A stretch of 33,301 bases of DNA from Kipferlia bialata. Lineage: Eukaryota. The translations under genes and the position numbers were made by a program. Shown here one piece after another: positions 66 through 32,791 of this stretch (position 1 is its first letter; every line of letters starts with the position of its first letter). The notes beneath the pieces are model-generated. The model saw only the letters and a program-made list of their open reading frames with translations, was not told the origin of the DNA and did not search any database. The DNA lies in contig BDIP01000076.1 in assembly GCA_003568945.1 (NCBI GenBank), positions 1-33,301 of the forward strand, read 5' to 3'.

Positions 66-1094
66 GACCATAGTCGGATTCAACAAGTGTGAGACAGTGA
101 AGGGCAAGCTGGAGGTCACGGAGAGGGTGTTCGACGTGCAAGGTGGCTGGTTATTCCCTATAGTATATGGTGTATTATGTATGGTGTATTATGTATGGTG
201 TATTATTATGTATTATAGATCTCTCACTGACACTGACCCCTAGAGCACAAGTCGTTTGATGCCCATACTACAGTATATATGGTGTAGTTACATACCATTG
301 TTTACTCTCAGTACTTTTGAAGACCCTTACCCCTCAGAGTTCAAGTCCTTTGATGTGCTGACTGCCACCAGTATAGAGTGTTATACAATATACTTCTCCA
401 TATAATATAGTCACCGTCTCCATATAATATAGTCACAGTCTCTACTATCATATGCCATTAAGGTACTGATCTCAGAGTTCAAGTCCTTCGATGTCCTCAC
501 TGCCACCAGTATACAGTGTTATACTATTCTATATTGTGACAGTATATATCCCCGGTTCCTATACATGTATATGGAAATATGCTGACCCTCAGAGTTCAAG
601 TCCTTCGATGTGCTGACTGCCACCAGTCAGGACTACCCATTCCCACTGGACGATAGAGTGCACTTTGTGCTAAACATCGTGAAGGTATTAATATGTATAT
701 GTATATATATATATATGCATGTATAGTCAGGACTACCCCTTTCCACTGGATGACAGAGTGCACTTTGTACTCAACATTGTGAAGGTATTAATATACATAC
801 ATGATTCTGTATACATCAATATCTACTACTATATCCCTCTCACCCCCAGCACCAGAAGGATGGCCTTGGCGTTTGTATATACATATTCATAAATATGTAT
901 ATATATATATATATCCCTCTATACATATACCCTAAGCCCAGCACCAGAAGGATGGCCTTGGTGCCAGACAGTCCAGACCCATATATATATACATATGTAT
1001 ATATAGAAATATCTCTATACCAAACTAATATCTCTATACATATATATCTAACCCCAGCACCAGAAGGATGGCCTTGGTGCCAGACAGTCCAGAT

Positions 1095-1136
<42 letters not shown>

Positions 1137-3171
1137 CTATACATATACCTAACCATAGCACCAGAAGGATGGCCTTGGTGCCAGACAGTCCAGACCCCTG
1201 GCCATAGGGTGTCCAGCTAGGGCAGACCACGTACGTATATAAGTATATATATGTAAGTATCTGTCTGTCGATATATATATACTCCTACTCGTGGTATTCA
1301 GTGTCTTTGGTATGTCGGCTAGGGCAGACCACGTACGTGTACATCTCTCTCTCTCTCAGTCTTTCTCTATATCTCTCTTTCAATATATATATATATATAT
1401 ATATATATTTATGTATATAACCATACTGACCTTAGGTTGGTGCTCTTGTCCTGTTCTACCAGTATGTGCTCAGCGCGTCTGCACTTGGTGAGTATACTTA
1501 TCCCCTTATCCCCATAGGCTAATACCTCTCCCTCTCTCTGTCTCTCTCACTCCTCTCCTATCCTGTGCCTGGGAGTGCATATGTATTCTACATCTGTATG
1601 CTATGTAATCAGTATATACATTGTGCATTCTCTCTTATATCAGGATCTATCAACCACCTGCACACTGTGCCAGAGAGTGCATATGCAGTATACATTTGGA
1701 GTTGTATATATATATTTATATAGCATTACCATTTACTGACCCCTTAGGATCTATCAACCACCTGCACACTGTGCTAGGCAGTGCCAGACAGTGCATAGGG
1801 GCACCGGTCTATGAGACATCCCACGAGGAGGAGATACAGAGCAGGGGTACGTTGGATATACCCTATATATACACATCTACAGCTAGTATATGTGCCCCCT
1901 CATTCATATATATACGTATGTGTGTATTATTCATATATATACGTATGTGTGTATTATTGTTAAGTGTTTGATATCGCACGAGTGGGAGATACATAGCAGG
2001 GGTACAGTGCTTGCATATATATCACCATGGTTCATTACATACATGATGTGGGCCCTCTCTATATGGGTATCAGTGTTGTGTATGTCCCCCCACCCCAGAC
2101 CTGACTCTTCTGTGGGCCCCTTATTAGTGTATATATGACACACACAAGTATATATACATATATATATCCTCTATATACAAATATATCCTTCCCCCCACCC
2201 CAGACCTGACTCTGCTGTGGGCCCAGCACCCTAGGTCCTACATCGGAGTCATCCAGCCCATCATCATGTCACTCATCAGGGAGAAGTGGCCTGACAAGAT
2301 CGGTATGTTGTATATATATTGTTTGTGTGAATACAATTGTCTCTATATCTCATAATGGTGGTGTTGATCAGGGGGAATTGGCAGACACAGGAAATGCGTC
2401 AATGAGTATGTACTTTCACGATGTTTAGTACACACCTCTAACCACCAGGCACTGTAACCCCCCTTGAAATAGTCATATATACATATATCGGTGTATCCTC
2501 TCAAGTGATTATCCTCCATTGAACCCATATTCATTTCCCCTCACCCCCAGACACTGTGACCCCCCTTGAGATTGCCACGCTTCATATATATATTTGAATA
2601 TGCGTATACATAACCATAAATATATGAATATCACTTATGCTTCTTGTCTACCCATTGGTATGCCGTCTAGTTTCTCACCCCCAGGCACTGTGACCCCCCT
2701 AGAGATTGCCACCCTCCTCTGTGTGCCCCACTACATACTGCATGTGGCTGCCCTACTGATTGTGGCATGTCTGGGGCCATACCCACCAGAAGTGCTCAGT
2801 GACAGGTATGTATATATATGCGAGTATATGTGTTAAACATAGAATCGTTCATATATATATGTAGGATATATATGTAGGATATATGAAGCGTCCGTGTCTG
2901 GGGGCATGCCCACTCGACAGAAGTACTCAGTGATAGGTATATATTCAATTGCATGCATGGTCAAATTGATACATAACATAGTCACTCACGTTAGGTTCAC
3001 CAGAGCCAACCAGAGCCCAACTGCATCACCAGTGGCAGGGAGTGGATCCCCAGGTATGTAGTCGTTGACTCATATATGTATATATACTTATACACACACT
3101 CTCTCTGTCTGTCTTTGGTTATGACTCTATATACTGAGACCCTTTTCCTCTAACCCACAAGGCCTCCCCCA

Positions 3172-3211
<40 letters not shown>

Positions 3212-3774
3212 CATATATATATATAATTATACACTTACCCTCAGGCCGATCCTCTGTGTCCCACAAGGCCTCCCCCTGGAAGCTCAGGAGGAGGGACAGT
3301 GATGAGCTGGGGGACTCACTCCACATCAGCAAGGTAATTACATACTACGTGTGTTATAACACACACACACACACACAAACACATACGTGTGAGTGTGTGT
3401 ACTCGTACTCACCCCAGGCCCTATACCACATCTGTCGGTGCCTCAGACCCCAGCCCATATTCTCAGCCCCTGCCAACTGGACTAGCAGTGACCCAGTGCT
3501 GGAGGTATAGAGTGTATTATACTTGTAGTATTTTATATATAGTGTATACTGACCCCCAGGTTGTGAGTGCCAGGTCCCACACAGCCAATGCCCTCATGGC
3601 ATTCACAGAGAGGCATAACAGGTACAAAGAATAGAAAACATACAGTATGGAGGCGTCGTCTGTACTTTCACCAGCACTGATGCCCAGACGGCAACATCTC
3701 TCTCTATGTATGTTTCTCTCCCTATATATATATTCTGATACCCCAGGTCCCAGTCTGACAACCCCTAACCCACA

Positions 3775-3813
<39 letters not shown>

Positions 3814-5696
3814 ATATGCTTTTGTGCATACTAAAATCCAGGTCCCAGTCTGACAACCCCTACCCCACCTCTGGCCACTCCCACCTGTTGATTGTCAACC
3901 TCACAGCCATCGCCAACATCCACCTGCCACACATGGACGGGGGGGCGGTGCTGGCACCATCCAAGGTACACACACATATATATAGTGTATATGTTTGTAT
4001 ATGGTATGTGATCAGCTGCCACACATGGACGGGGGGGCAGTGCTGGCACCATCTAAGGTATATATACTAAGGATACGCCTCAGTATCAAGTATATTGTTT
4101 TAGGTATCAGTCTCTGACCCCAGGGCGTGTCCCGGATGCCCACCCTCTGGCCCCCCATGGTGTGTGCCAGTGCATACTCCTCAATCAGCCCAAGGTACTA
4201 ATTGGTATATATATTGTGTGTATATATATATATATAGACAGATAAGTATATAGTGAATATATATTTGACATGTCAGTGCATACTCCTCAATCAGCCCAAG
4301 GTACTCATATACTCATAGTACTATATATATAGCATGTGTATGACCTACCTCACCCCCAGGGTAGCCCTCACCCACATCCCATCCCTCCATGCTGTCCGTG
4401 CCCAGCTTCCCTCTCTCCTGGCATCATTCCCTCTCAAGCTGCCGGAGCTGCTACAGACTGCCAGGGAGTCTCTCTGCTCACTCTTCTCAGGTATTGAGTG
4501 TGTCACATACGATTTTACCCTGTCCTTGAAGCACATCTCCCTATGTTCCTACTGACCCCAGCCCTCCTAGCCCGTGCCACTGTGTCCACTGCTGTTGCCA
4601 AGGCATACGAGAGAGAGGGGGCGGCGCAGGTATATAATAATAGACATATGTATACATATATATAATCACTCTTGTGTTTAGATACTGCTGTTGCCAAGGC
4701 ATACGAGAGAGAGGGGGCCGCACAGGTATAGATACGTATATCATAGAGAAGTGTCGTTCATGCATACCCATATATACTCACTTTGTACACTGATCTCCAG
4801 ACCCCTGTGAAGCTGAATGTGACGCCTGCCTCCATCCACGGCAGGGTGAGGCTGATAGTCAAGGACTTAGGGGCTGAGGTATGGTCATGTGTGTATATAT
4901 ACTAGTACTACATATATGGGAGGGTGAGGCTGATAGTCAAGGACCTAGGGGCTGAGGTATGGTCATGTGTGTATATATACTAATACTACATATATGGGAG
5001 GGTGAGGCTGATAGTCAAGGACCTGGGGGCTGAGGTACATACAGTGGTATACTGATACAATATATGTAGTTGTAAGGATATATATAGCTATCACCTGATA
5101 GTCTTCTAACACTCTCAGGACGGCACAGAGATTGACATTCTCACATCCGAGATCATCAAGATTGCAATGTGCCCACCAAGAACAGGTATGTTGGTATATA
5201 TATATATACGTATATATGTGTGTGTGTGTATATATACCATTCTACTCTTCAATACTTCATACACTGTCCCACCCCAGCCAACATGCACTCCCCCTGCATG
5301 GAGACATACACATACAGCCCAGAGGACACACTGGTCAGATTCATCAGGTACAGAATATATATGTTTATATCTAATTGTACATAATAGTAATATCTACGAT
5401 CACTACGCTTCCCCTCACCCCCAGACCCAACGGCACCTACAGCAGTGTCACCCCTGCCTCGTTCAGACTCAGCCCGGTGTTCCAGGTATATAGTATACAG
5501 TCATGCGTACTCTACTGATGTATGCTCTATATATGGTTGTAAGTAACTCTCCTTATAGAGTGAATATATATAGACTCATTCTGACCTAAGGGCCTTGACA
5601 CCCCTGCTGCGCTGTGGGGCAGTGCCGGTCTGGCCGAGGCCTTTGACTGTTCCATACTGGGACACGTCATAGCAGCCATATACGGTATAGATAATC

Positions 5697-5730
<34 letters not shown>

Positions 5731-8700
5731 GATATTGATATGTGTTGAGAATATGGAATGGATAGCTAAACAGCATGGATATGTTTATCCTATAATGTAG
5801 TGTACAGCCTATTTACTGTGTATTTGCCATTTACCCCAGGCATCCGCCAGGCCCCCCCTACTGTCGTACCCCCTGTCCTGCAGGACATGCTCAAGGGCAT
5901 ACAGGTACATTTGTGAATGTAATATTTCATGGTCACTATATTATGTCTGTAATACAACCCACACCCCCCTCACCCCCAGATGTCGCTTGTTACCATCCCC
6001 TCTGCCCCTATAGTGTATATAGTGTCATTCATATAGTACTCTATTTACACCTGTAAGTGTGTGTATGTACCCACCCCCCTTACCACCCCCAGATGTCCCT
6101 TGTTGTCATTATCTCTGCCCCCGTATAGTGTATTCATATATATACCTACATACATATTCTGATATATACCTAATCTCCAGATGTCCCTTGTTGTCATCCC
6201 GTCTGCCCCCACTGAGCAGGAGGTCTATGCCTCGGACTCACCCCTGTGCCCTGTGGTCCACTTCCTGTCTAGGGGGAAGGTACGTATGTACATATACACG
6301 CATTAATATATATAGTTCCCTCTATATGTCTCACCCCCAGGGCCCCTCCGGCCTTGTGCGTGTGACTGAGGTCTGGGTCAGACTGTCCCTGTCCACAACG
6401 GTGAGTCAGGGGTATATATATATATATGTATATATATATGTATGATGTCATCCTATATATTCTATGTATCATCTCACCCACAGGACTCCATGCTGCTTGT
6501 CGAGGTGTTGTCTGCCTCTACATGTAATATATACTCTTTGTATCTATATCTTGTATATATGAAAGATGTATAGTGATCTCACTCCCCAGGACTCCATGCT
6601 GCTAGTGGAGGTGTGCGGTGTGGATGTCCCCACCAGGTCCATATTGAAGGACTCCTTCTGGCATGTGGACACATCCAACACATCATCTTTAGACCTGGCA
6701 CATAGGACACTGACACAGCTCTTTACAGGTTAGTGTATAGCCTAACAACATAGTATGTATATGGTATATAGAGTTATACATCCAACACATCGTCACTCGA
6801 CCTGGCACACAGGACACTGACACAGTTGTTCACAGGTACTGTTGTATACATTTGGATAGTGTATATACACAATTTGATTAACTAAATGTATATATATACA
6901 TCAAACACATCATCCCTGGACCTGGCACACAGGACACTCACGCAGCTCTTTACAGGTTTGTATGTATTCTATGTATATCTGATATTTGTGTTCAGTTCTG
7001 GACTTGCTATTAGCCTTATTGTTCCCATCCCAGGCGCTGTGCTGCGTGTGCTCCTGGACGCCAAGGCCCTGACCCACAGACAGTCGGTGGCACTCAAGCT
7101 GGTGGCATTCAGGTACAGCAATACTGATATGTATATATAGTATATATGTCTGTATTTGTATTTGTTTTAATACTATAGTTATCGGCGGCACTCAAGCTGG
7201 TGGCATTGTAGTAATCAGGTATATCTAATAGATACTGATACTGATACTGAATTTTATTGTGGGGTATGTAGTATAGTTTTTATAAACATTCCAGTGTATT
7301 ATGTTACTGTGGCACTCAAGCTAGTGGCATTCAGGTACCATAATATTATTGCATATTGAATGTTTTCGGGGTATATATATGACAGAGCTCATATCAGGAT
7401 GCGCCTGACCAGTTATGGCACCTATATATGTATATATCTTCATATATATATATATATGGATATATATATATATACTCATGGATATGTAGCCTAATCCTCA
7501 GAATGCGCATGACCAGTTCATGACCAGTTGATACACCTGTCTATCTATATCCATATATAGTGGATATATATATATTCATGTATATGTGTATATATACAGA
7601 ACTCATCCTCAGGATGCGCATGACCAGTTCCGGCACCTACCAGGGCAACCCTCGGTATGTGGAGGAGAGAGAGAGAGAGAGGGCTAAGGAGAGACACCTG
7701 GCAAGGGAGGGTGGAGGCGATATGGGTGCAGGAGTACCACAGTCTACAGTGTCACCCCGTACGGCGTACGGCAAGAGCAGCATGACGTACAGAGAGAGAG
7801 AGAGGAGGGAGAGAAAGGAGAGAGAGGAGAATGAGGATGACCACATGTTCCCCTTGGAGCTGCTAGATGAGCACAATGTGTTCATATCGCCCACCAGCAT
7901 AGAGCACGTGTCCAGTGTCAGGTGTGGTGACTATATATACAATGTGTGTATTATTCTCTATATATATCGGGCCTATTCTCACCCCCTAGGCACACTGGGC
8001 AGTGCCTCCCCCCCAGGTGTTACACCTCGTCCCTCCCACCCCTCAGTGGTCAGTACTTCTCAGTGCTGCCATCCCTATTCCCAGAGGTATAGAATACTAT
8101 AGCGACTGATGTCTATACAATATATACAACATATGTAAATACGTATGTATCTCTCAGCCTCTTGGCCGTTGTCATCCCCCATTTGTCCTTCCAGCCAGTC
8201 ATACCATATATACAGATATATGTATATATGTATACGTGTGTGATAAATATATATACACTGTGAGTCTCACCCCCAGGCCGTTGTGATCCCCCACGTATCC
8301 TTCCAGCCAGTCATACCCCCATGCAGGGCTAGAGGGAGAGAGAGCAGCCTGCCCAGTCTCGAGGGAGCATACAACGGAGAGACACAGTCGGAGCTGGTGC
8401 TAGACCTGGGTACGTATCTACGTACACACTCACTCTCTCTCTTGAAAGTGATGGTGAGTATTTTGGTCTCTTGCTTCCCCTTTCTCACCCTCCCAGCCTA
8501 TGTCCCCCCTCTGTTCCGCGAGACCCTGCTCTCCTTCCTACTGACATACCTCCCCCCCTGGGTCTCTGCATTCAAGAGGGGCATGTTGGCCCAGATAGAG
8601 AGACTGGCACCAGCTATAGAGCACGGGTCACCGGCAGGTTTGAGAATATGTTATATATACATTTACTTATTCTACTCTAACCCCCAACCATGGCCCTGTA

Positions 8701-9308
8701 TGTCAGACTGCTGCGTGTGACCTTATATATCTCTATATATATATATCTATACCTATATGAATACTCGTATGCTATACATACCACCGTACTAACACCCAGC
8801 CATGGCCCTGTATGCCAGACTGCTGCGTGTGACCATATATATATATTGATATGTACAGATATAGAAATATACGTGCAATTATTTACACACACACCACTAG
8901 TCTAACTCAGCCATGGCCCTGTATGCCCGACTGCTGCGTGTCACCTTCAACCAGATCCACAGGGTCATCATCAGTGGCAGAGAGGCAGAGAGAGACGGGA
9001 AGAGGGGTATGTCTAACTCACAAGAATGACCCGTCTACTCTACTGCTATATATTCTGTGTACATATATCTCACCCCAGAGTCCAAGGACCGTGACCCCAT
9101 CTGCGTGGCACCTGATGACAGTACCCTGGTGCTATGCATCATCAACGTGTCAGCAGCAGGTATACTTACGTGTGTAATACAGATATGTCAGAGAACACGA
9201 TATTACATTGGATATTTAGTATCGTTCACGTGTCAGCAGCAGGGTGGTGAGCAGTTGGAGGGTATATGTAGGGTACATACACTTCAAACACCTCTTTCAC
9301 CCACATAT

Positions 9309-9341
<33 letters not shown>

Positions 9342-12300
9342 GTGTGTGCGTTGCTCTCCCGTACCCCCAGGCACCATCTCCCTCCGGACCCCCACCCCCC
9401 TTGTTGGGGCATCCACCTTCCAGGAGTGTGCGAGGTATACAAACACTATATATTGTTTATACTCTACTGTGATTTCAGGAGTGTGCTAGGTATATGCAAT
9501 CGCCATTAGTATATACTCTAGTACATAGAGAGTATCATTCACTGGTGTCACCTATATATATACTATTGACCCCCAGGGCCGTGCTGTCCTATTGTCTGAC
9601 TTGACATATAGTATAGTATAGTATATCTACACACAATAGTATTCACTAAATATTAGTTTGCATTGCATTGACCCCCAGGGCCGTGCTGTCCTCTGCCCTT
9701 GTGTCTGAGCTGGCAGGGTCACACCAGATGGACGCATTCTGCCGGTATGAGTTATGTATCATAATGTATCGTCCCTATATAATTATATGCACTTCTCTCC
9801 AACTTCAGTCTCTCCATGTACCCTGTGCGAGATGCCATCCTGGCCACGTGCCATGCTCTGAGGTATCGATATGTGTATGTACTACGCTATTATATATGTA
9901 TTCTACATATTTTCACTATGTATGTATCAATACAATGTGTATGCCATCCTGGCCACATGCCATGCGCTGAGGTTCATATAGAAGAATATTTAGATATACT
10001 TATGTATATTTACTTCCGATAATTGAATGTAACCCCAGGCTGTCTGAGAAGATCAGACTGGCAGCATTGGCCAATGTGGCAGCAGCCATGCACACAGTCA
10101 GTGCCCTAGGTTAGTATAGTGCATATGAATGTGTATGCTAACCCAATTATGTACTGTATGCTATGTACTATATGTATGTATATATATCAATGTGGCAGCT
10201 GCCATGCACACCGTCAGTGCACCTGGTGAGTGTAGTGTATATGTACATATATTAGTTCTCTCTCTCTGTCTCTCTATATATATCACCCCAGGCTCCATCA
10301 ACCTGTCTGTCTCTCCCTCTGTCCTCAAGGACAGACTGGCCATCAAGAGACTCATAGAGTGTGCAAACGGACTCATTGGAACACCAGGTATGTCTATACT
10401 TTATCCTTCTTCTTGTCCTAAACTGACTATGTGATATATATGTATGAGACTGATTGAGTGTGCAAATGGGCTGATTGGGACACCAGGTAGAGATTTCAAT
10501 AATTAACAGCAAAATAGGTCAAATGATGATTATGGTCAGTGATCCCTTCTAACCCTTCTAGGCACTCTCAGGCGCTCCAGGGAGAGAGAGAACGCCAGCA
10601 GCAAGGGCAGCCACGAGTATGATACGCTCTACCCACTGCTCCTAGCCAGGTACACGCATACACAATTGTGTATATACATCAATTGCGTTACATATGTCAT
10701 TGTATATCACCCCAGGAGTGTCTCCATCCCGTTATGATACATAGTGCGTGTATATGCGTCATTCTCTAATTTCCCAGGAGTGTGACCCTTCTGTTCTCCA
10801 CCATGGCAGGGGCCGTGCTCAGAGACTGGGACCAAGTCGGTACGGAAGAGTACATATATACACACTGATGGTTATATTCCCATAGGTACGCATCAATTCA
10901 GTATCCAAAGTTTGTGAGTGAATATATGTTGGGTCCCGGAGAGTGTATCTCCCTCACCCCAGACCCCCGTGAGGACATGGACATGCTCAGTGACAGTGAG
11001 AGTGACCCAGAGCCAACCCCAAGACAGGTACACACATAGTGGATATTATTTGTATTCATATGGTCTTCTCTTGTGGTGTGTATTACTCTTTCTCACCCCA
11101 GGCCCGTCTGCTTGGCCGCATACCCTCTGGGGCATCACCATCCTCAGGTACTGTAGTATATATACATGTGTGTGTGTATGTGTCTCATATCATATATATA
11201 CATCCACATCCTCGTAGTTTCTGGTTATTGTGCGAACATACACATTCCTTCCTTCCTACATATTCCTTCATACTGTCTATGTGAGTATACTAGTGTATCC
11301 CCTCACCCCCCAGGTGCGGCTGAGGGAGATGACTCCCAGAGCGGGTCCTCTAGAAGCCGGAGCTCGTCAGACGATAGGGAGTTTGGCTGGGAGACTGGTG
11401 GAGAGGCCGAGAGTGAGACGGAGACTGACACTGACAGTGAGAGCAGTGGGGAGATGGCCGCCAGGCAGAGACAGCACGATAAGGAGATGCACAGAGGGGT
11501 GTTTGTGATATTCGAGGACCAGGCTGCGCTACAGAGCAGGGTACCACCCACTCTCTCACTTGATATAGAGAGGTCCGTGGTGCTCCCTGCATTCACACTG
11601 AACGGCACACCGACTGTGCCTGCCGTGCACCTGCACATGTCATACACCAACAGGAGGTATGGAAGATATGTATTTACAGGGATATATATAGAGAGAGAGA
11701 GAGTCAGAGATATGTATTTATAGGGATATATATATAGAGAGATAGAGTCAGTACACCTGCACATGTCATACACCAACAGGAGGTATGGGGTTGTATGCAC
11801 ACGTACATTTTTACATATATCCTATTCTATTCCACACACCCACTGCAATCCTATAACCCCCAGACTGCTGTGTCCCCGGCCTGGTGCATCTGTTGGCACA
11901 GGGGTGGCATCACCCAGACGCAGAAACAGGTACATACGTAATGTCTACTCTCAATTAGTCCTTATACATACAATGTATTCTCCTCTCACCCCTTAGGCTT
12001 GGCAACATGTCTGGGTCTGATGAGTCATTCTCTTCCTCTTAGTCATACATTGTGTATATACACATGAATCCCCCTTTCTTAACCATAGGCTTGGCAACAT
12101 GTCAGGTTCCGATGATGACAGGCCTGCCAGGGGCACTCTCAGCAGATCCAACTCTCTCCTGATGGCAGCCGAGAAGACCAATATGCCGGCACAGAAGTAT
12201 AAGGTATATATGTATAGATATGGACAGATTATACATATATATATATATATATATATGGAGGCGAAACATGCCGGCACAGAAGTATAAGGTAAATAGAAAC

Positions 12301-14698
12301 ACATCGATATACTTGTGTATACAATGTTGCCAGTATTGTGTTAGGTGTCATTGTGTACTGCGTATTCCTCACCCCAGTGCATGATTGTCAAGGGAGACAG
12401 CGGAGACGTGCCAGCATCCCTGGTGATACAGGGTATGTGGCATATTATGAGTGTATATGCACTGCATTTCATGATGTGATTGTACATATGTATGAATATA
12501 GCTAGTGGTTGCTCACCACCAGTGCCCGATGTTGGCACCCTAGAGCACCTTGTGACGCAGAGCCCCATCCTGCTGCCACTCAGACTGCAGCTGCTGAGGT
12601 ATATACACTAATATATATAGTCTATTATATATACCTACACTTGTATTTACGACTGTCGCTGAGACTCCACTCTCATCCCTAGGCAGTGGCTGTACCAGTG
12701 CCAGTCCGGCCTGTCCAACATGTGCTCAAGGTGAGGTCTCTATCTCTCTCTCTCTCTCAATATATTGATTTGGGTATAGGATCCTATTCTCACTCTCAGG
12801 CGTGTGTGTTGCTACACCATCCCAGGCACCCTCTGCTGCACTGTAGACACTGTACCTCAATACCTGCTGCAGTGCATGTCCCTGGGGAGGGAGGCATCGG
12901 CAGTCATAGGTACACACTCAATGTACTAATTAGTATATATGTGTATATATATAGTAAGTATACTATACAGTACCTGCTGCAGTGCATGTCCCTGGGCAGA
13001 GAGGCATCAGCAGTGATAGGTACACACTCAATGTACTTATTAGTATATGTATATATATATATATTTACTAACTCAATGTACTGATTAGTATATTTATATA
13101 TATATACAGTACCTGCTGCAGTGCATGTCCCTGGGCAGAGAGGCATCCGCTGTGATAGGTGGGGAATATTCATTCACAATTTCAGTTTCTTTGTATATTC
13201 TACGTTATACTAATGGTCACCATAGGCGGTGGATGTGAATTAGACTACTATGAGTCTCTGAGTGTACATAATATTCCCTAGTGCTATCTTACCCCCAGAC
13301 AAGCTCTTTGACCGGTCCACCTCCCTGGCCAGACAGGTGGGTGTCTAGTGCTCTCGCTTCATATCTCTAAACTATTTCTCTATACTATTAATTATTATAC
13401 TACTCTATTACCATCCCTGTCAACACAGTGTATTCTCATGTATATAGGCATCCCCCCTGGCTATTAGGATTATGGAACTGTCTTCGATGTTGTTTTCGTG
13501 TAATCTCTTGCTCTCTGTGTATAATATACATGTCGTATACTAACCCTAGGTCTGCGTCTTTGACTCTGTTCTGTTTGTGGGCGGTGCCACACACAGAGAG
13601 CTCCCGGAGTTTGTGAGGTACATTCATCGACACATGTATTCATACGCCTGTGTGTTCATATTGATCCATACTGATACTCATATTGATGCGCTGCAGTACC
13701 ATATCCATCTCTTCTCCTTTCTGATAGTGACACTATTCTTTTCTTTACTGGCATACTATGGCACCATGACTGACACTGACCCCAGACATGTGCAGGGAGT
13801 GCCTGTGATAGAGGTGCCCACCCCAAGTGAGGATCAGAGTGAGGAAGAGAGGGACAGGCAGCGTGAGGCCCTAGACGAGGCTGCCCTCTCCAGTCACATT
13901 CCCATGTCCATCATACCTGCCCCAAGGACAGAGGATAACCTGCTATTCGACGGCAGTCCCCCTGTCGACAAGAGGGAGATGGAGAGGGAGAGAGAGAGGG
14001 AGATGCAGGCGCAGCTGAGTGAGGCCTTGAAGGAGCCCCGGATCTCTAGATCTAATACAGAGAGTGGGGAGAGTGGGGAGACTGACGAGGGAGAGAGTGA
14101 GGGGGAGAGTGACAGTGACCTGCTGCCAGCTGGTGAGTCCACTCTGCTATCAGGAGTACAGGGCATGTCAGGTATAGCCGGTGCCATACCGTCCTTCTCA
14201 ACCCCCGGTACACACCTGACAGGGGGTAGTGGGGACTCGGTATCCTCCTCTGCACCTGGGGACAGGCCCTCTCTCTCCCTATCTCGCGGTACAGCCAAGA
14301 CACCGTGGAGAGGGACAATGGCTGTGATATCACTGGACCCACCAGTGTGGGAGGTACGATGAATACACACATGTATATATCACTGTAGATAATACAGTTA
14401 AATAGTATCTACTCACCCCAGCATCTAATAGGTGTCTATAAGGACAGAGTTTTCGAGGCCCTTAACCGGTATGGAGAGGACGTGAGACCGGGGGAGAGGT
14501 CCATTGTAACTCCACTGCTGAGGCTGGTACCAGAGCTAGAGAAGGAGACAGGTGGGGACGTTCATATCATCATTGTCTTGTTAGTATATATTCTTACTCT
14601 CAGAGCGCGCTATCGTGATGGCCTGTCTGCTAGCCTGGAAGCTCATCTCCATAGCACATGGGCCCATGTCGCTTGAGGAGGCGTTAGCCATGGAGTAG
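66..14698 (+). CDS. Large multi-exon uncharacterised protein, 5' end outside the window (dozens of short exons)
   Basis: Hand splicing at GT-AG sites keeps an open frame. Examples: 66-142 TIVGFNKCETVKGKLEVTERVFDVQ, 593-684 EFKSFDVLTATSQDYPFPLDDRVHFVLNIVK, 1159-1230 HQKDGLGARQSRPLAIGCPARADH, then later DSMLLVEVCGVDVPTRSILKDSFWHVD and GSINLSVSPSVLKDRLAIKRLIECANGLIGTP, long exon 13786-14353, 14422-14551, and terminal 14604-14698 (ERAIVMACLLAWKLISIAHGPMSLEEALAME*, TAG). Exons are GC-rich against AT-rich introns. No family recognised. Not every internal junction was checked, so it could be more than one gene. Confidence 0.8.
244..13158 (+). repeat. Intronic partial duplicates ('echoes') of adjacent exon ends in the large + strand gene
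   Basis: 5'-end echoes include 244-263, 338-372, 476-510 (exon 593) and 850-870, 942-980, 1058-1097 (exon 1159). 3'-end echoes include 725-784, 4921-4956, 4999-5034, 6778-6835, 6898-6955, 10447-10486, 12968-13019 and 13107-13158. Confidence 0.95.
4843..5037 (+). repeat. 78-bp tandem repeat (about 2.5 copies) spanning an exon 3' end, the donor site and the intron head
   Basis: AGGGTGAGGCTGATAGTCAAGGAC occurs at 4843, 4921 and 4999. The intron part is almost identical between the first two units. Confidence 0.92.
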
Positions 14699-14911
14699 AG
14701 AGGCTGATGTACTTTGCTACAAGTAGTGTACCAGTAGTATATGTACTTCAAGTATGCTGATTGCTGTTGCCCCTTATCGTTGTTTGTGTCTATTGTCCAG
14801 TGATTCTGGACAGGTGTTCCAGCACCAATGTGGTGTGTTGTAGAGGGTAGAGAGTATGGAGAGAGTATATTGTGTTCGATTAATAGACGTGTGATGATTA
14901 CTCTATTGTCT

Positions 14912-17888
14912 TCAGATTGCCTTGTGTGTGACATGCTTAGACCCCGCCACTGGGCTGTTGAGAGGGCGGTAGGGGCTGACTGAGGCTCTCTCTCCCTCCA
15001 CCGCTCTACACAGTATGTCCAGAGCTGACACCTCTCTATCCTCCCCACTCTCATGCCCAAGGAGGGACGTATCAGTGTCCTTCTCCCCCTCGAATACCTC
15101 TCTCTCTGCACTTGGAGATGGCTGGAACCTAGACAGGAAGAGGCGCTCTCTCTCTCGCACGTCCTCCTGTGCTAGGGCCTGCCTCTCTCTCTCCCTCTCA
15201 AGCAGCCTTGCCTTCTCTGCCTCTCTCTCTCTAGCGAGCTCTGCCCGTCTCTCTCTCCTTGCCATCTTCTGTGCCTCTCTCTTAGACATTGGCTGCAGGG
15301 TGGACACGACATCTGGGGACACAGGCTGCGAGGGGGGTAGCCGCTGGTGCTCCCTGGCACTGGCCTTCATGGCAATTCTCTCTCTCTCTCTGTTAGTGAG
15401 CCTTGGTGTGGGTCTGTCCCTAGGGGGTGGGGGAGGGAGCCTGCCACCGACACTTCTGCTGCGGAGAGGCCTCTGGGACACCAGCATCTGTGGCTCATGC
15501 TTGACCCGATACTGAGGGGTGGAACCATCTCTATCTCTTGATGGTGCTCTTGATGATGCCCTTCTGGAGGTGCTTGATGTGACACTGGCGGATGATGCTC
15601 TGCTGTACAGTCTGGTAGGGTACTCTGTCTTTGTCTCGGGGGTCCACTCTTCTTCCTCCTCCTTGGCTCTGAAGCGAGGGGACCGCCGGGACTGGCGACG
15701 CTTGGTCACTCGCTTTGGGGCAGGCTTGCCATCTGGCAGTCAGACTGGAAGAGAGTGATACCCATCAATGCAACAAAGATGTTCCAAAACTTCACATGTG
15801 ACATAGTCTACCCGGCAAAGATTGTTGTAGGGTAGCAGAGAGAAGTCTGAGACTACTCAGGGACTATATAGTTGCTGTAGTTTGGTACATGTACCTGGAC
15901 TGGTGTGGACTGACAGAGAAGGAGTGGATCTGCGGGTAGAACTGGCTCTGGAGGATGGTCTGGAAGCTGCCTTTTCCTGGCATTGAGTAACAGCGCCCGT
16001 CGAGTAAACAGACATCGCAGAACGTAGCTGAGGTTCACAATAGATAATAGAGACACACAGACTTCCATTGACCATACATGATATATCATCTGTTATAAAA
16101 GAGTCCTGCGTAACTGATGATACCGGTAAGTTACTTACCTCTTCTGTCAAGGGAGGGATCCTGGTGGGGTTGTACTCCTGAGGGTGGGTTACATTGAAAT
16201 GGGAATGATTGTGAGTCTAAAGAATGAATAGTGACCTGCAGTTGCAAAGACTATGAGAGACACTCCTGCTCAATATCATTGATACATATATAGTACTGTA
16301 TTCTTCACCTCAAAACTCCCCCTGGGGTGCTGGTGCTTCATGTGCTGCACAGCGCCACTTCTTACAGAGAACACCCTGAGGTATGAGAGAGTATAGCAGA
16401 TATATACCCATACTTGGCAAGTATGATACTTGCAAGAAAGAATGCGTAGCACACAGGAGCTTGTTAGAGAGTAGAGTACCCGATGCGGTTTCTCAACGGT
16501 GAAATACTATAATGTGTACCTTCCACATCCTTCCATCAGACACTGCCACCTAATGCCCCTGTGCACACCTTGGATGTGGGTCTTGAGGGCACCTGGGGTG
16601 AGAAAAGTGTGGATGATATGTATCTGGTGACATCGATGGTCTCTCTGAATCTGCAATGTGTGACCCCCATCTTATAGTCTAGTTGCTAAACGTGTCGCCA
16701 ATCAGTTGAGTAAGAATACTACCATTGTATATAATTGAGTGCATAGGATATAGACAGTGGCAAGAGATACCTCTCTGTGTGAACCTCTTGTCACACTCTG
16801 GACAGGGATAGGGCCTCTCATTGGTGTGGGTGTGGATGTGGTCCTTGAGATTGGCTGGTGGTTAGGAATGTCCCGAGAAGGAGAGTGGTGACGTTCAAAT
16901 AGTGATACTATACAAGATTCGTACTTCGTCTCTTGAACCCCTTGCCGCAGTATGGGCATAGGTGATCCTTGCCCTTGTGGGTCTGGGACAGGTGGCGGTG
17001 CAGGGACACTGGGAGTAGGAATATCCAGACAGTAGCATTGCTGCATTGTTCAGCTGACCAAGAAGGCAATATCGATAGAGAACATGTGAAGTGACTGCAA
17101 TACTAGTACATCCAGTGTATAGTGGTCTCTCGATACCTTTGTTCCTGAAGGTCTTCCCACACTTTGAACATGCATTGGCATCTGGTTGTAAGTACTCTCG
17201 AGTATATGTGTATGCTCTGTCTTCTCGTATACTTGAATATAACTGTAACAATTGAGTCAAGGGCCGTATTCACACTATTTGGACTTCTGTAAATTTCACT
17301 ACCAATGGATAGAAGAAGTATCCCACCTTGAGGCTCTGAGTCCGAGTCAGGCTCTGAGGCGTAGACAATCTCTCCACGGGTGTCGATTTGAGTCGCCATC
17401 ACTGCTGTTATATCAGAAGTGCATTCATACATAGTCACTGAGGTGTTATAAGAATATCGTTACCTGGCTGTTCCTTGTCTGAGTGCTCTAGGTCAGACGA
17501 TGACTCAGAGGCTACCCCACTGCCAGATGGAGGGACTGTATCCTCTGATGTAAGATGGCATGCCCCTGAGCAGAGAAGTTACAACATGTAACATGTTCTC
17601 AACATGTATTATGTGTCGGTGCTTGGATGTAGCGAACTATATACATAACTCATACCCATTGTGTCGTGACAAGTGAGACTAGAAAAAGAAATTGATATAG
17701 AGAGAGAAACACTGTAACACACCCGATGGGGGCAGTGCAGCCACTCTTGAAGCTCTACCTGCCGGTACACCTGTCCCAGTGAGTGGTGCCTTCTCTGAGG
17801 ACATCTCTTGTTTTACAGCAGTCTCTTCTTTCACTTCCACATCCCCCTCCGTTCTGCCCCTACATCCCCTACGAGGCCTATTCTTCAT
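14912..17888 (-). CDS. C2H2 zinc-finger protein (4 fingers), paralog 1, probably with a long Arg/Glu/Ser-rich C-terminal exon
   Basis: Exons 17888-17723, 17565-17464, 17437-17327, 17181-17137, 17008-16925, 16854-16771, 16592-16520, 16375-16309 and 16177-16139 splice to [108 protein letters not shown]. Small exons 16027-16014, 15976-15895 and 15863-15812 can join in phase to 15732-14912 ([21 protein letters not shown]...). An alternative unspliced end stops at 15857, so the 3' structure is less certain. Confidence 0.85.
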
Positions 17889-18608
17889 AGTCCCCAGGCC
17901 ACCCGTTGACCCTGTCTCGCACTAGACAGGGCCTTTACAGCAGTGTGGTGTTTCGACTGAGTAGAACCCCAGTCTACAGTTACAACCCACTCTGTTTTGG
18001 TAGGGTATGGGACTCTACGTCGAGAGCCTGTAGTAGACTTAGTAGTCTGCTGTGAACACCAAGCCAGGGGCAGACGCTGGTACTGGGCGTATACCAGTAG
18101 TATTGGCCTTGGTCACTGTAGAAGGAGCCATGTGCCAACCCTGTCTGCTGTACATTGAGGGCATCTCAAACATTCATAGAGGCTTTCAAGAGGTGTCAGT
18201 GAGAGTGTCATTGATTTCATAGATTTACTGTTAATATCTTTACTACTATTTTCAGGGAGTAGCCAGTGGCTACTAGCCACTCCCATACACTTTGCAGAAG
18301 GCCACCCCAATGACCAATAATAACTCGATTAGTGGATTCTGATATTGGATTCTGATATTGGATTCAATTCCCCCTCGTTGAAGGGGGATTTGCTGCAAAC
18401 TGGCACCATATCTACACTGAGTTAATAATGAACTCAATTTTCATTAGATATAATGAACAGACACAGCTTTCTGTGTGATCCCAACACTCCGCTGAAGAGT
18501 GAAGTCTCTCGAACAATACTTGGAGAATATTGAGGAGTCAAGAGAATTCTATTACGTCATTCCAAGCACATTACGCTCCCTCCCTCAATCGTCCTCTCTA
18601 TTTCAATA

Positions 18609-19090
18609 CTATGAAGAAGACTCCTTCGAAGACTCCTCCTCACTGCTTGATATAAGATCATCCATCCAGCCCAGGTCAGGTAGCGGTTCTTCTCCCACAG
18701 TCGAAGACCCCTCATCACTGCTAGACATATCATCTTCCATCCAGCGTAGGTCAGGGAGAGAGTCATCTCTCACGGTCGAAGAGTCCTCATCACTGCTTGA
18801 CATATGATCCTCCATCCAGCCAAGGTCAGGTAGGTAGTCTTCTCCGGCAGGCTCAGTGGTCACACAACTACTGACCCTCTCCTGTCCCACTACGGTGTGT
18901 ACAGTATCACCTGTAGATATACTAAATGATACGTGTTTTCCCTCTGTCACAGGGGGCGCAGTGTTAGATGCAGTAGGCTGTCCGAAAGGCACTCTTTTGG
19001 CTGGAGGGGGTGGAACCGTCAAGGGAGTAGACATAAGGGATAGGTCAAAGGAGAAGTCGAGGGCAGAGGGCTTTACGGCGGAGCCATGAA
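18609..19090 (-). CDS. Probable terminal exon encoding a Pro-rich segment plus three acidic 25-aa repeats
   Basis: ORF 19034-18609 extends upstream in frame to an AG acceptor near 19091 (LHGSAVKPSALDFSFDLSLMSTPL...). Its connection to upstream exons is unresolved. Confidence 0.5.
18612..18833 (-). repeat. 75-bp coding tandem repeat x3
   Basis: TCCATCCAGC recurs at 18661, 18736 and 18811. Units are LPDLGWMEDHMSSSDEDSSTVRDDS / LPDLRWMEDDMSSSDEGSSTVGEEP / LPDLGWMDDLISSSEEESSKESSS. Confidence 0.9.
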
Positions 19091-20145
19091 GCTATCGTTA
19101 ATACACCCCATAATATTACAACAAGTTTGGACGTGTTACAACAAATACGCATTCGTCAGACGTGTGTATCATGTAGCATAGTACTTCGTAAACCCTTACC
19201 AGCAATTGGTCTTGCTCAGAGTATGTGGTGGGCGCCTGCCAGTCACTTTCTATGGCACTGGTGTGAGTATATATCCGAAACTGGACACTGATCATATGTT
19301 TGCTAATCACGAATCCAAGTTGTAGTGCCGGGAAAGCTTACCTCTTGCCCTGATCGTTACTGGACAGAACAGGGATCGAGACCACTTCCTTCATATGGAG
19401 CTTCCACTTGTCAGAACACATCTCCAGGTCTGTATTACTCGTAACAAAGTGGGAGACATCGGTAGGATGGGGTTGTTTTGGAGACTGTGGAACGGTTGTA
19501 ACGCTTTCACTAGAAGAAGAGGCCTGATTGTTACACTGGAAAGAGACACATGATGTATATTAGTGAAGCACACACACGTCGTAGAATTTTGTGCCAGATG
19601 ACATATATCTTGAACATGATCATTGTTTCAACTATTGTATGGTTCACGGCGTATGAATGTTTGGTTGTGTTGTATCCTGAAGGTCCAGAGCGCAAATTTA
19701 GGACATATTCAATATGTCACATATTGATACATCCTGTGAGGGTGGCGTCGTGTTTGAGGTACAGAGGATGAAATCACACCACTCTGCAAGAACTTCTTAC
19801 AGTGTAATAAGGCCATCCAGCTATACATATATCATAAAGTCATCATTCAGCACACTCTCATGATTGACCAACTAACCTCTCTTTCCGAATATTGGTCAGT
19901 CAACTCCAGCTCTCTCTCTTGCATTACCCCTTCAAGCCTGATTGGACAGTTGATCTGTGGTAACAGGTCTCACAGGCACTCTTTACACCACTTTAACCAT
20001 CACTCGACACAAAGAAGAGATTGTTGTAATGCACCCACTGAGGTCCATTCAGTGCAATAGACTACATACTGGAGTTGCAAAGGTCATCATCCCAACCAAC
20101 TCACCAAACAGGTGCTGAGATATAATGAAGGGCAAGAATACTGAC

Positions 20146-20564
20146 CTTGTGGTCAACATCAGAATGGTACTTCTTCATGTGCGTTACACAGTTTGACTTT
20201 TGTGTAGTCATTCTGATGTTAGCAAGGTAACAAGAGCATTCCATAGTGTACTTCCTTCCAACATATTTGTGCAAAGTCAGTATGCATCGGGTGTTTTGAG
20301 TGCACAAAGAAGAATATTACACATACTCCTACTGAGGTAGTATGTGCAGTAGCACCTTAGTGTATAGAACACCTCACTTGTAGGAACACATTTCTGAAAT
20401 GTAAGGCCCTCACCTGTCACAGCACGGGCACCCCCACATGATGCCGTAGTGGACGGAATCAATGTGCACCTTGAGGTATCTCTTGGTAGCGAACCTCTTC
20501 TCACACTGCGGACCTTGAAATGGCTTCTCACCTGTGTGAGAACGTATTTGGGTGTCCATATTTG
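20146..20564 (-). pseudogene. Third, degenerate C2H2 zinc-finger module
   Basis: Exon 20564-20414 reads (A)NMDTQIRSHTGEKPFQGPQCEKRFATKRYLKVHIDSVHYGIMWGCPCCDR. It has the canonical HTGEKPF linker, but H>Q and C>G at zinc ligands. Exon 20212-20146 reads MTTQKSNCVTHMKKYHSDVDHK. These align to fingers 2-4 of the paralogs. No N-terminal exons were found. Confidence 0.6.
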
Positions 20565-20670
20565 CTAGCATTAATCAATGAACCTGCTCTGTCTACCTTA
20601 ATAGGCATATAGATCTGAGTCTCACATGTTACACTGTATACTGGGCAAGAGTGAGTAGCTCTGAGAGAGT

Positions 20671-22639
20671 CTAAAGTGGAGACTGCAGAGTAATTGAGAG
20701 TTGCTGCAGGTACCTGGACGTTTGTGCACTGAATTCTCTGGGATGGACCCAGCTCTGGAGGATGGTATAGAAGCTGTATGTTCCTAGGAGTAAGACAGTA
20801 TCTTTGCATGTGATAACATACATCACAGAGCGACGCTGAGGTTCATCTAGGACACTACGAATAAGGCAAGCTTCCATATAGCATGTATGTAACGTGAATC
20901 ATATATAGGGTGTCACAGTTGTTAGTTACTTACCTGTTCTGTCAAGGGAGGGACTCTGATGGGGTTGTACTCCTGTGGGTGATTTGTATGTCAATGAGGG
21001 AAAGATATGTAATCAGAAGTCTGTTAGAACCCACTGTTGCCACTTGCAAGTACTATCAAGGTGATACTATCAAGTTGATAGTATCAACAACTATTCGATT
21101 GTACTTGGAACAAGTTACCTCAAAACTCCCCCTTGGGTGCTGGTGCTTCATGTGCTGTACAGCGCCACTTCTCACAGAGAACACCCTGGGAAATGAGAGA
21201 AAGTAGCACATACTTCTCTGTGCTTGCAAGATTACTGGGTAGCAGGGGGCACTAGATACAGAGTAGAGTACCCAACTATGTGTTTGAAGAGTGAAACATC
21301 TATGTGCACCTTCCGCACCCGTCCATCGGACACTGCCACCGGATGCCCCTATGGACCCCTTGGATGTGGGTCTTGAGGGCCCCTGGGGTAAGACAACTTG
21401 AAGTTCATATGATATATATAGAGTGGATGGTATATGTCATTACATTGTAGTGTAGATTCTGCGTAGGATACTACACGATTTACCTTTCTGTGCGAACCTC
21501 TTGTCACACTCTGGACAGGGATAGGGTCTCTCATTGGTGTGGGTGTGGATGTGGTCGTTGAGATTGGCTGCACGTTAGTAGCATATGATGCCCTATATAT
21601 ATAGTAAGAATCAATTAGTTACTGTATAGAACACGTACTGCGTCTCTTGAACCCCTTGCCGCAGTATGGGCATAGATGGTCCTTGCCCTTGTGGGTCTGG
21701 GACAGGTGGCGGTGCAGGGAGACTGGGAGTAAGTCACGTGAGAGTAAGAGGCACTGCTACTAACACAAACGGCTGCAGGTCAGAATGGAGATTCATATAC
21801 AGGTATCGGTGGAGGGAGACTGTGAGTATAACAGGATGTCAGGATACCGCTAAGAGTATACTGCGTTAAAGCGATAGTAGAAATTGTTGCGAGCAATATA
21901 TACATGTACTAGTACTGTTCTTCCGTACCTCTGTTATTGAAGGTCTTCCCACACTTTGGACAGGCATTGGCATCTGGTTGTGAGTATAAGACAGAAGGCG
22001 GAACATTCAGGTCTTCCCTTTCCGATGTTAACTCTCACTTTACTAACACCAGTATTCGTGTTACCAGTATAAGATTATACAGTGTGGCACCTTGTGGCTC
22101 TGAGTCTGAGTCAGGGTCTGAGAGATAGACACCCTCTTTAGGAGAGTCGACTTGAGTTGCCAACACTGATACATCAGAGGGATATTGACTGATAGTTACT
22201 GAGGTGTTTTGAGAGTATAGTTACCTGGCTGTTCCGTGTCTGAGTGCTCCAGGTCAGACGAGGACTCAGAGGCTACCCCACTGCCGGATGTATGGGCTGA
22301 AGCACCTGCTGTGAGATGGCATGCCCCTGAGCAGAGAAGTCACAACATGTAACATGTTCTAAACATGTATGATACGGCGGTGCATGGATATAGCGTACTA
22401 TACAGACTATGTATTACAGAGGAGTCATAACCATTATATCGTGACACTTGAAGTGAGCAACACTCTAACACACCCGATGGAGGCAGTGCAGTCACTCTAG
22501 CAGCTCTGCCAGCACGTTCACTTGTCACAGCGGGTGGGGCCTTGTTTGATGGCATCTCTTGCTTTACAGCAGTCTCTTCTTTCGCTTCCACATCCACCTC
22601 CGTTCTGCCCCTACATCCCCTACGAGGCCTATTCTTCAT
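20671..22639 (-). CDS. C2H2 zinc-finger protein (4 fingers), paralog 2
   Basis: Same start ([14 protein letters not shown]) and same exon/intron positions as paralog 1. Fingers [33 protein letters not shown] and CPMDGCGR are intact and introns have diverged. It appears to stop at TAG near 20671, without the long tail. Confidence 0.82.
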
Positions 22640-23483
22640 AAGATCCAGGCCTGCCCTTGACCCTGTCACACTCTAGACAGGGCCCCTGTTGCTATGTAGT
22701 GTTTTGACTGAGTAGAACCCCGGTCTACAGTTTCCGCCTACTCTCTTGTGGCCGTGGTGGGCACTCTGTTTTTCGAGAGTGTGGGTGGCCTTAGTTGTCT
22801 GCTAAGAACAACCAGACGGTGGCAGAGACGGTACTAGGCTAATACCTGTAGTATAGGCCTTCGTCACTGTAGAAGGGGCTATGTGCCAACCCACTCTGCT
22901 ATACATTGAGGGTATCTCAAACATTCATAGATGCTTTCACGCCATCTTAGTGATAGTGTCAGCACTGAATTCATGGCACTATGGTATTTCCAAGGAAATA
23001 GCCACATAACGGTAATTAGAAACATAACGGTAGTCACATATAATTAGAGTACTACGGTGTTGTCATGGAAACTACAACGGTGTTGATCAACAGTACTTTG
23101 TGTAGTCTATACAACTATATAGTCTATAGTCTATATACAAATTGTTTTGCAGCGGAAGGAGAGAGGAGGAGGGAACCTCCCGGAGGGCACACCAATATAG
23201 AAACTATCTAGAGTCAAATTCTGGCCAAGTAGACAACACTCATTCTTCGCATACATGCCCATATCTATAGAATAATGTATGTACATACTTAAAATAGTTA
23301 TTATAGGCTGTACTATAGACTTTAGGTCCTGTATATAGTATGAAGAGCAAATGCATGATAGATCCCCTTGGTTCAATTGATACTGACGGAATATTCATAA
23401 TGATTATGAGATAATTAATAATGACTATAGCAGACTCCTATTGAATAGTATGACACATACAGTGGGATGGGGGGGGGAATCAT

Positions 23484-24077: not shown

Positions 24078-24233
24078 CTGCAGCGAAGTGTGTGGAGAGA
24101 CATTCGGCCAAAGGCATCAGAATCGGATATTTTGAGACTTTCCGGTTTTTCATCCAGACCCCTTTTCGAAACTCTCCACACACATGCTCTGTGACGCTAC
24201 TGTCAAGCACTCTCTCTAACCTCATTCGTAGCC
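24078..24233. promoter_or_regulatory. Putative bidirectional promoter (156 bp between divergent ATGs)
   Basis: Inferred from position only; no specific motif recognised. Confidence 0.5.
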
Positions 24234-25200: not shown

Positions 25201-25435
25201 ATGCTTGGTACAGTATAGAGAACAATATTCATTCAGCTGGACTTGCAGCTCGCAGACCCATTGCAATATGTAGACGCTGACGTAGATCTCAATATATTTA
25301 CTAATTCAACCATTACACTCACTGGGACGTATATGTCCTAGTCTCTCAATCATCGGGTACGCTCTCAAACAAAACGAGCGCCTCTAAAACCCTCTCTCCC
25401 TCCTATCATTCACCGACCATCTGTCATGGTATTCC

Positions 25436-28041: not shown

Positions 28042-28074
<33 letters not shown>

Positions 28075-29583: not shown

Positions 29584-29619
<36 letters not shown>

Positions 29620-32221: not shown

Positions 32222-32258
<37 letters not shown>

Positions 32259-32759: not shown

Positions 32760-32791
<32 letters not shown>

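Follow-up and report, generated by a model that had tools for sequence, protein, structure and literature searches.

Partial copies of exon edges in introns of two Kipferlia bialata genes differ from the working exons mainly at silent sites

We analysed a 33,301-nucleotide (nt) stretch of DNA from Kipferlia bialata (contig BDIP01000076.1 of assembly GCA_003568945.1; this whole stretch is called the window hereafter), in which introns contain partial copies of the edge of an adjacent exon, here called echoes. All the echo counts were obtained from two long genes of the window. Among the described systems, the nearest case is the potato RdRp gene, with a single tandem duplication over an intron-exon boundary (PMC4974935, in the accessible part of its text). 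As in those echoes that copy an exon start (acceptor-side echoes), the duplicated unit consists of an intron's 3′ side together with the 5′ side of the exon that follows, and the parental splice signals were inherited; according to the same accessible text it was a single event, its copies align throughout (10 differences) and a cryptic donor makes a new intron (PMC4974935). The echoes, in contrast, are spread over 43 of 77 introns; none of the junctions seen has given rise to a new intron, the intron parts of the units are unrelated and the differences are mostly silent. Duplicated mutually exclusive exons, reportedly such as exon 5 of SCN-alpha, are likewise coding copies in introns with the amino acids kept, but they are entire, have both splice sites and are used in the mRNA, whereas the echoes are partial, have one splice site and are skipped by the one spliced contig on 1-2820. 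Stwintrons are introns with nested splice sites, removed in two consecutive splicing steps and without any copy of the flanking exon; the echoes share the nested splice sites but copy the flanking exon and, judging by the exon ends and starts, give no sign of an obligatory two-step route.

There is also a likeness to models of DNA repair. In the one-sided invasion model, and in microhomology-mediated break-induced replication (MMBIR) or FoSTeS (fork stalling and template switching), one end is homologous or templated, the other end is joined by few matching bases, and a local duplication is left. To our knowledge, these processes have been described for engineered breaks and rare rearrangements, and not as a standing architecture filling half of the intron DNA; unlike in the MMBIR cases, moreover, a diverged allele would act as the donor of the echoes, within the bounds of exons of 50-140 nt, in a mechanism that we infer. 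Microhomology-mediated template switching (MMBIR/FoSTeS) is reviewed in PMC4888836 (accessible part). Partial gene duplicates under ectopic gene conversion are also partial copies exchanging with a working gene (PMC3449122, accessible part), but conversion from the working to the dead copy would give neither a ratio of non-synonymous to synonymous differences per site (pN/pS) far below 0.5 nor diverged intact splice motifs. Judged from the sequence, the echoes would work like scars of one-sided repair and would not belong with plain tandem duplicates or with alternative exons. A full-text literature search, which covered titles and the beginnings of abstracts and largely excluded subscription papers and all supplements, returned no description of such echoes. 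In the accessible main text of the genome paper (PMC5874029) the strings "duplicat", "heterozyg" and "ploid" are absent, and the accessible part of PMC6679479 has passages on spliceosomal proteins. The pattern is real and window-wide, and its signature is strong and so far undescribed; its mechanism is what we infer.

For a single intron of the first gene, the initial annotation of the window had reported an exon end that recurs twice downstream. The exon in question is working exon 24 of gene 1 (6590-6728, plus strand, 139 nt, phase 0, within an open frame of 52 exons), and its last 58 nt (6671-6728) indeed recur at 6778-6835 (echo 1) and at 6898-6955 (echo 2, with the same breakpoint as echo 1), each segment being 58 nt long. 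All three copies are followed by GT (gttagt, gtactg and gtttgt, respectively). The exon differs from echo 1 at 8 nt and from echo 2 at 7 nt, as annotated, and the two echoes differ from each other at 9 bases; all the copies translate to TSNTSSLDLAHRTLTQLFT (19 residues), and the leucine codon swaps that had been listed (TTA/CTC/CTG and CTC/TTG) are present. In simulations of random substitution, the peptide stayed unchanged in 3 (8 changes) and 12 (7 changes) of 200,000 trials. It must be considered that Nei-Gojobori path averaging assigns 2 non-synonymous steps to the two-base leucine swaps of echo 1 despite the identical protein.

The remaining claims on this intron also held. Both echoes lack the 5′ part of the exon and an acceptor, the sequence preceding each of them being intron-like, and the surrounding intron is unalignable (scores of 1.5 and -1.0; with unrelated intron pairs as the background, p is 0.59 and 0.77). 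Precisely, the working exon is followed by a donor GT and a 49-nt spacer (6729-6777), that is a 5′ part of an intron without acceptor; echo 1 is followed by its own donor GT and a 62-nt spacer (6836-6897) that cannot be aligned with the first; 3′ of echo 2 there is a complete core intron of 78 nt, from GT to AG (6956-7033). The following working exon (7034-7112) has its own end echoed at 7182-7210 and 7309-7334. Upstream of exon 24, the scan described below found an acceptor-side echo of the exon start, consisting of AG and 25 nt with 2 synonymous changes (6484-6508).

This intron is one instance of a window-wide pattern. Exon edges were anchored at the splice site and aligned to the adjacent intron, with a cut-off score of at least 10; echoes scoring below 10 or broken by an indel, such as one near 244, were left uncounted. 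The genes considered were gene 1 (66-14698, plus strand; 52 exons, 51 introns, 42 echoes) and gene 2 (25436-33246, minus strand; 27 exons, 582 codons, 26 introns, 31 echoes), both with the 5′ part beyond the window edge. Taken together, 43 of their 77 introns contain 73 echoes, each one at the splice site of the adjacent exon, while the control, in which the exons were non-adjacent (20 shifts), yielded 0.05 copies on average and at most 1. Donor-side echoes (an exon end followed by GT), the type known from the initial annotation, account for 42 of the 73; the other 31 are of a mirror, acceptor-side type (AG followed by an exon start), which had been missed. Where an intron holds both types, the donor-side echoes come first (8/8).

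Each unit consists of an exon edge and 38-143 nt of intron minus the far splice site, arranged head to tail. The copied part measures 11-60 nt and covers a median of 37% of its exon (at most 73%); with the spacer, the unit is 55-157 nt long (median 106, coefficient of variation 0.18). Spacers have a median length of 71.5 nt on the donor side and 78 nt on the acceptor side, near the core intron length (median 83) minus the far splice site. Of the 15,399 intron bases in the two genes, roughly one half belongs to the 73 units. Median intron length in gene 1 is 84, 186 and 305 nt for 0, 1 and 2 echoes, respectively, with about 100 nt gained per unit. Neither intron phase nor exon length was related to the presence of echoes.

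We consider it fairly probable that the echoes are edges of once-working exons of a diverged allele, stranded by a recombination that relied on homology within the exon and ended illegitimately within the intron, and then multiplied by unequal exchange. The first evidence is the kind of differences between echo and exon. As expected values of pN/pS, we considered 1 for a frozen exon with a neutral copy and 0.5 for an exon changing only silently with a neutral copy. The comparison of echo and exon substitutions proposed in the initial annotation, when run on the window, gave a value far below 1: over the 73 echoes there are 103.7 changes in 537 synonymous sites and 44.3 in 1708 non-synonymous sites, corresponding to a pN/pS of 0.134 (P = 1.5e-32 against 1 and P = 6e-15 against 0.5). 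The ratio is 0.145 without the focal case; when each group was represented by a single echo, bootstrapping gave 0.06-0.22. Nineteen echoes are identical to the exon, 28 have silent changes only and 26 have some non-synonymous change, with clear stops in two. Ungapped scoring inflates the non-synonymous counts at a few echoes, a bias against the allelic origin; all rows were kept, including echo 7182-7210, in which the scored stop looks by eye like an insertion.

The two genes behave differently at silent sites. In gene 1, pS is 0.253 and pN/pS 0.10; in gene 2, pS is 0.082 and pN/pS 0.32. The value of pN is 0.026 in both, and pS differs between them (P = 1e-6), so that a shared neutral age and a gene-specific distance between working copies may be separated. 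We read the differences as two layers: an older one would reflect the distance of two working copies from each other, and a thin, recent one would be neutral decay. GC content at third codon positions is 0.80 in gene 2 and 0.69 in gene 1, the lower pS going with the higher GC content. Non-synonymous changes are GC-to-AT in 26 of 41 cases, and neutral decay to the intron composition predicts a fraction of 0.63. Synonymous changes are symmetric (37 of 67 GC-to-AT): an all-neutral expectation of 0.81 is rejected (P = 2.5e-6) and a half-neutral mix is unrejected (P = 0.09). Third-position changes are uniform along the echo (0.141, 0.136 and 0.145), as expected if the entire tract derives from another copy. 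A candidate scheme of duplication followed by crossover within the echo was also considered; it predicts a gradient of silent changes, and no gradient was seen.

As a calibration, we used two C2H2 zinc-finger tandem paralogs on the minus strand, with open frames (genes 15830-18220 and 20640-22970; exons 17181-16139 and 21973-20934). Over 130 codons, their pS is 0.22 and their pN 0.039, and their intron flanks are unalignable in 10 cases out of 10. The six exons compared are 86-96% identical and the five introns are unalignable and unequal in length, while the first 300 aligned columns upstream of these exons are still 76% identical. As far as these alignments go, intron interiors turn over faster than other sequence in this window, and the signature of the gene 1 echoes against their exons resembles that of two intact paralogs. 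One further echo was found in a zinc-finger gene (21819-21799, minus strand), in 1 of 10 introns scanned. More generally, the centre of the window (14700-25400) has fewer TA-type repeats and few echoes (the same 1 in 10 introns scanned), against 43 of 77 introns in the long genes flanking it.

The second evidence comes from the intron sequence next to each echo. For 36 bases beyond the splice motif, echo and working exon were compared: the flanks were at background in 63 of the 73 echoes, the focal ones included, even where 44 exon bases are identical. The splice motifs themselves have changed and are still of a working type. In acceptors of genes 1 and 2, the branch motif lies no more than about 12 nt away from the AG, in the order YTNAY, run of C, AG. 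This branch motif is kept in 28 of 31 acceptor-side echoes (66 of 77 real sites; 18% in the intron interior), and the acceptor blocks differ from the own working acceptor at 43% of sites, compared with 53% between unrelated acceptors. On the donor side, positions +3 to +8 are 46% different and GT is kept in 40 of 42 echoes. Median splice scores of echoes and working sites are 6.3 and 6.4 for donors and 7.0 and 6.6 for acceptors. Most likely, each echo arrived with a splice site that had evolved while in use, because a dead copy could not diverge that far within the consensus. AG is kept in 26 acceptor-side echoes and lost in 5 of 31, above the prediction of decay (P = 0.02), and this excess suggests that acceptor-side echoes are mildly harmful; in those at 8688, 25935, 28745 and 29147, AG was changed to AA or AT with the exon part nearly intact.

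Another origin would be a plain tandem duplication of about 100 nt across a splice site; the intron would then have changed very rapidly, and the working exon would have been replaced through conversion, limited to the exon, from other alleles. The narrow unit length described above would be explained in this way, 6 to 10 of the 73 flanks do align, gene 2 fits a ratio of 0.5, introns of the zinc-finger paralogs diverge much faster than silent sites, and one such duplication is known from potato (PMC4974935, accessible part). We consider this quite unlikely: the echoes have decayed by 2.6% and 63 of 73 flanks show background likeness only, a combination that would demand a rate of change in intron bases over ten times that of the adjoining echo bases; splice blocks that are 43-46% different still have the working type; and gene 1 would require diverged alleles anyway.

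Introns with several copies bear on how echoes multiply. The breakpoint is common to the copies in 13 of 18 multi-copy groups (3.3 by chance), and junction flanks are similar in 7 of 17 multi-copy pairs. In the echo pair at 4918-5034 (plus strand), the near copy is like the far copy at its 5′ side and like the exon at its 3′ side (pattern FFE), with the intron flank of the exon, as would result from unequal exchange. It is likely that later copies arise by unequal exchange once a junction exists, because breakpoints are shared, junction flanks are similar and one chimera is clean. One intron (27828-28133, minus strand) holds four donor-side copies of the same exon end, three of them with breakpoints within 1 nt and with flank types alternating; this array suggests repeated unequal exchange.

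The same observations (common breakpoints, similar junction flanks, the clean chimera) are also what the second of three options offered by the initial annotation would give. Here the copies take turns as the coding sequence: old tandem duplicates of the same lineage exchange with the working exon at such a rate that selection acts indirectly against non-synonymous changes of the echo, and the intron parts drift apart. A second allele, of which none was seen in read contigs on 1-2820, is then unnecessary. The option fits poorly, except that a secondary unequal exchange is seen. Without selection on the echo it predicts a pN/pS of about 0.5, which is rejected for the pooled echoes and unrejected for gene 2 alone; echo acceptors outside the shared sequence should have decayed, but their branch motif is kept in 28 of 31 despite the 43% divergence; silent echo changes should be AT-biased but were found symmetric (with the half-neutral mix at P = 0.09, as said); and the product of exchange rate and population size would have to exceed 1 with copies 25% apart silently. 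We regard turn-taking as unlikely.

To evaluate the integrity of the assembly, contigs from two read runs, X1 and X2, were compared with positions 1-2820 of the window, a region that lies outside the focal stretch; these are contigs and not single molecules, and X1 is possibly the source of the window itself. X1 covers 22 of the 30 bins of this region. One X1 contig (depth 420) equals 39-681 without any difference, and it runs from one exon over two called echoes into the exon after them; the echoes are two acceptor-side copies (338-372 and 476-510, plus strand) of the exon 593-684, on one DNA contig. Two others, at 728-876 (depth 367) and 1168-1331 (depth 289), also cross echoes. None of the 31-mers of 6560-7125 occurs a second time in the window, and at most 20 exact bases are common to the three focal units, so that in the focal stretch an assembler would find no repeat to slip on. 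For 4000-12000, where 6.8% of words span a junction, X1 contains 98% of 824 sampled words.

Mis-assembly is unlikely. In the form in which fragments of diverged haplotypes or strains would have been joined at low-complexity sequence, we give it a very small chance. The TA-rich introns would favour such joins, and the read comparison has the limits of extent and source just given. Nevertheless, a normal haplotype cannot contain a junction from an intron to the middle of an exon; the contig 39-681 crosses two echoes at ordinary depth (289-420 over these contigs) with no second allele listed; the focal stretch has no recurring 31-mer and X1 has nearly all the words of 4000-12000; and non-synonymous changes are found in 26 of 73 echoes, with clear stops in two.

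The third option of the initial annotation was a use of echoes at the RNA level. X2 is presumed to be an RNA run, since its contig shows GT-AG joints: exons 1-7 of the gene 1 model match a 6599-nt contig of X2 with no differing letters and with five GT-AG joints listed. The joint 684-1159 is absent from the listed joints, though its two exons adjoin on this spliced contig. For 4000-12000, 25.8% of the 31-mers are wholly exonic in the model, and of the sampled words 25% are present in X2; this agreement suggests that transcription of the exons around 6590-7112 follows the model. On 1-2820, the one spliced X2 contig skips the echoes and has no echo letters, considering that contigs lose rare forms; skipped are the two acceptor-side echoes of exon 593-684 and its donor-side echo of 60 nt (725-784, plus strand; 7 synonymous and 0 non-synonymous changes). 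At the junctions seen, the spliceosome picks the outermost donor and acceptor. Since the splice sites of echoes reach the scores of working sites, this choice must come from the context, with recognition of the exon as its likely cause.

We also looked for the second splice site that an echo would need as an exon. An acceptor-like motif precedes 0 of 42 donor-side echoes, and a donor of real strength by the trained score follows 1 of the 26 acceptor-side echoes with AG. Cassette mini-exons had been a candidate, as with a loose pattern 6 of 31 acceptor-side echoes had a donor-like site, all at multiples of three; with the trained score giving 1 of 26, they were dropped. As regards two-step splicing through the final AG of an echo, exons preceding an intron end in AG in 63 of 77 cases (66-14698 and 25436-33246), and this ending is not enriched with donor-side echoes (27 of 30 with them, 36 of 47 without; P = 0.23). 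Likewise, exons starting with GT, considered as a test of recursive splicing, are not enriched (P = 0.72).

It is hardly credible, in our estimate, that splicing makes use of the echoes, in an alternative, recursive or two-step form, and that selection on the protein maintains them, even if their splice sites score like working ones, 47 of 73 have no non-synonymous change and AG ends 27 of the 30 exons that have a donor-side echo. Against such use are the spliced contig without echo letters on 1-2820 (rare forms may drop out), the absence of acceptors (0/42) and near absence of donors (1/26), the AG ending that is not enriched over exons without echo, the equal pN in both genes, the loss of AG in 5 of 31 (P = 0.02) and the stops in two echoes. 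The option of RNA use is not supported by this comparison.

The best supported of the three options is the capture from diverged alleles, which fits the pN/pS, the flanks, the splice motifs, the symmetric silent changes and the paralogs; its weak part is that no donor was seen in the contigs on 1-2820 or in metagenome scans. The donor is likely a strongly diverged allele or a homeologous copy. The event would probably be a break inside an exon repaired from the diverged allele, with one end homologous and the other illegitimate, a route that we favour because it is the simplest one to both mirror types. One broken end would invade the other allele within the short exon, copy the edge of this exon together with its splice site and the greater part of the foreign intron, then lose homology and rejoin the other broken end through few matching bases. 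In this way the copied edge would turn into the working edge, and the old edge with the old intron would remain behind as an echo. The same product would also result from an illegitimate unequal crossover between homologs. If a unit took in the far splice site as well, a mini-exon would form and be purged. Afterwards, the exon edge and its echo would exchange unequally and in this way give rise to more copies with a common breakpoint, as in the focal case, and the echoes would decay neutrally. For metamonads, a lack of canonical end joining and a reliance on homologous repair have been reported (PMC8516963, accessible part); if the host is a metamonad, this lack would suit the repair model.

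Several observations weigh against this capture from diverged alleles. At silent sites the implied alleles would differ by about 6-23%, and their introns would be unalignable; such an allelic distance is extreme for a single species. No second allele was seen, as no other letters were listed at 80% likeness in X1 or X2 on 1-2820, and scans of metagenomes by the DNA pattern and by a gene 1 exon found no relative; the donor may be missing from the strain. Flanks are alignable in 10 of 73 echoes (6 at p < 0.01); one of them, the echo 12968-13019, has 5 silent changes and would need a second exchange. In gene 1, the flank score is uncorrelated with pS (rho = -0.09). Compared with random 4-mers of exons, those at the junctions are more intron-like (P = 0.001), partly as an artefact of the calling of echo ends. 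The lower limits of spacer length (38 and 58 nt) are unexplained by the allelic origin, gene 2 alone does not reject 0.5 (pN/pS 0.32, P = 0.17), and the clean chimera at 4918-5034 is 1 of 7 equal-length pairs, the other 6, with the focal pair among them, not being clean. Finally, two genes of one window stand behind every count.

It is quite possible, if somewhat short of an even chance, that alleles are so diverged that only the short exons pair, and that recombination stopped half-way routinely writes units of about 100 nt, made of an exon edge and intron of the partner. If true, a process other than mobile elements or slippage would build about half of the intron DNA and swap introns wholesale, and one genome, from a single strain, would be a dated archive of many other alleles and a readout of cryptic sex and past diversity. 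If the allelic reading holds, it would represent a new route of intron growth and turnover, and outcrossing and allelic diversity of a microbial eukaryote could be measured from a single assembly, because the silent differences would tell how far apart the alleles were and the non-synonymous ones how long ago the event took place. The echoes also raise a question of splicing, in that short introns with several equally strong donors or acceptors are resolved to the outermost pair. They mislead gene finders as well, since the automatic draft had called many mini-exons.

As for the other features of the window, it is the DNA of an intron-rich eukaryote, with TA-rich introns. Both gene models were curated by hand starting from the automatic draft. 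The gene 1 model has 1764 codons in a single open frame over its 52 GT-AG exons, and a Pfam search with four of these exons gave no family above the cut-off. Gene 2 is presumably RasGAP/neurofibromin-like, on the basis of a motif. Near-perfect tandem repeats of 14-44 nt, wholly intronic, occur at 166-210, 395-442, 1902-1958, 11664-11751 and 26433-26482; they are a separate class of slippage type, shorter than the echo units. At 18626-18845 (plus strand), a 75-nt unit is present three times with 80% match within an open frame of high Ser, Glu and Asp content; this repeat is no exon echo. For two intronless, divergent open reading frames at 23484-24116 (minus strand) and 24195-24599 (plus strand), no Pfam family was found, and a homolog search with the frame 24234-24596 returned none; the two frames have in common a stretch resembling GDTYDAYLLRHKG.

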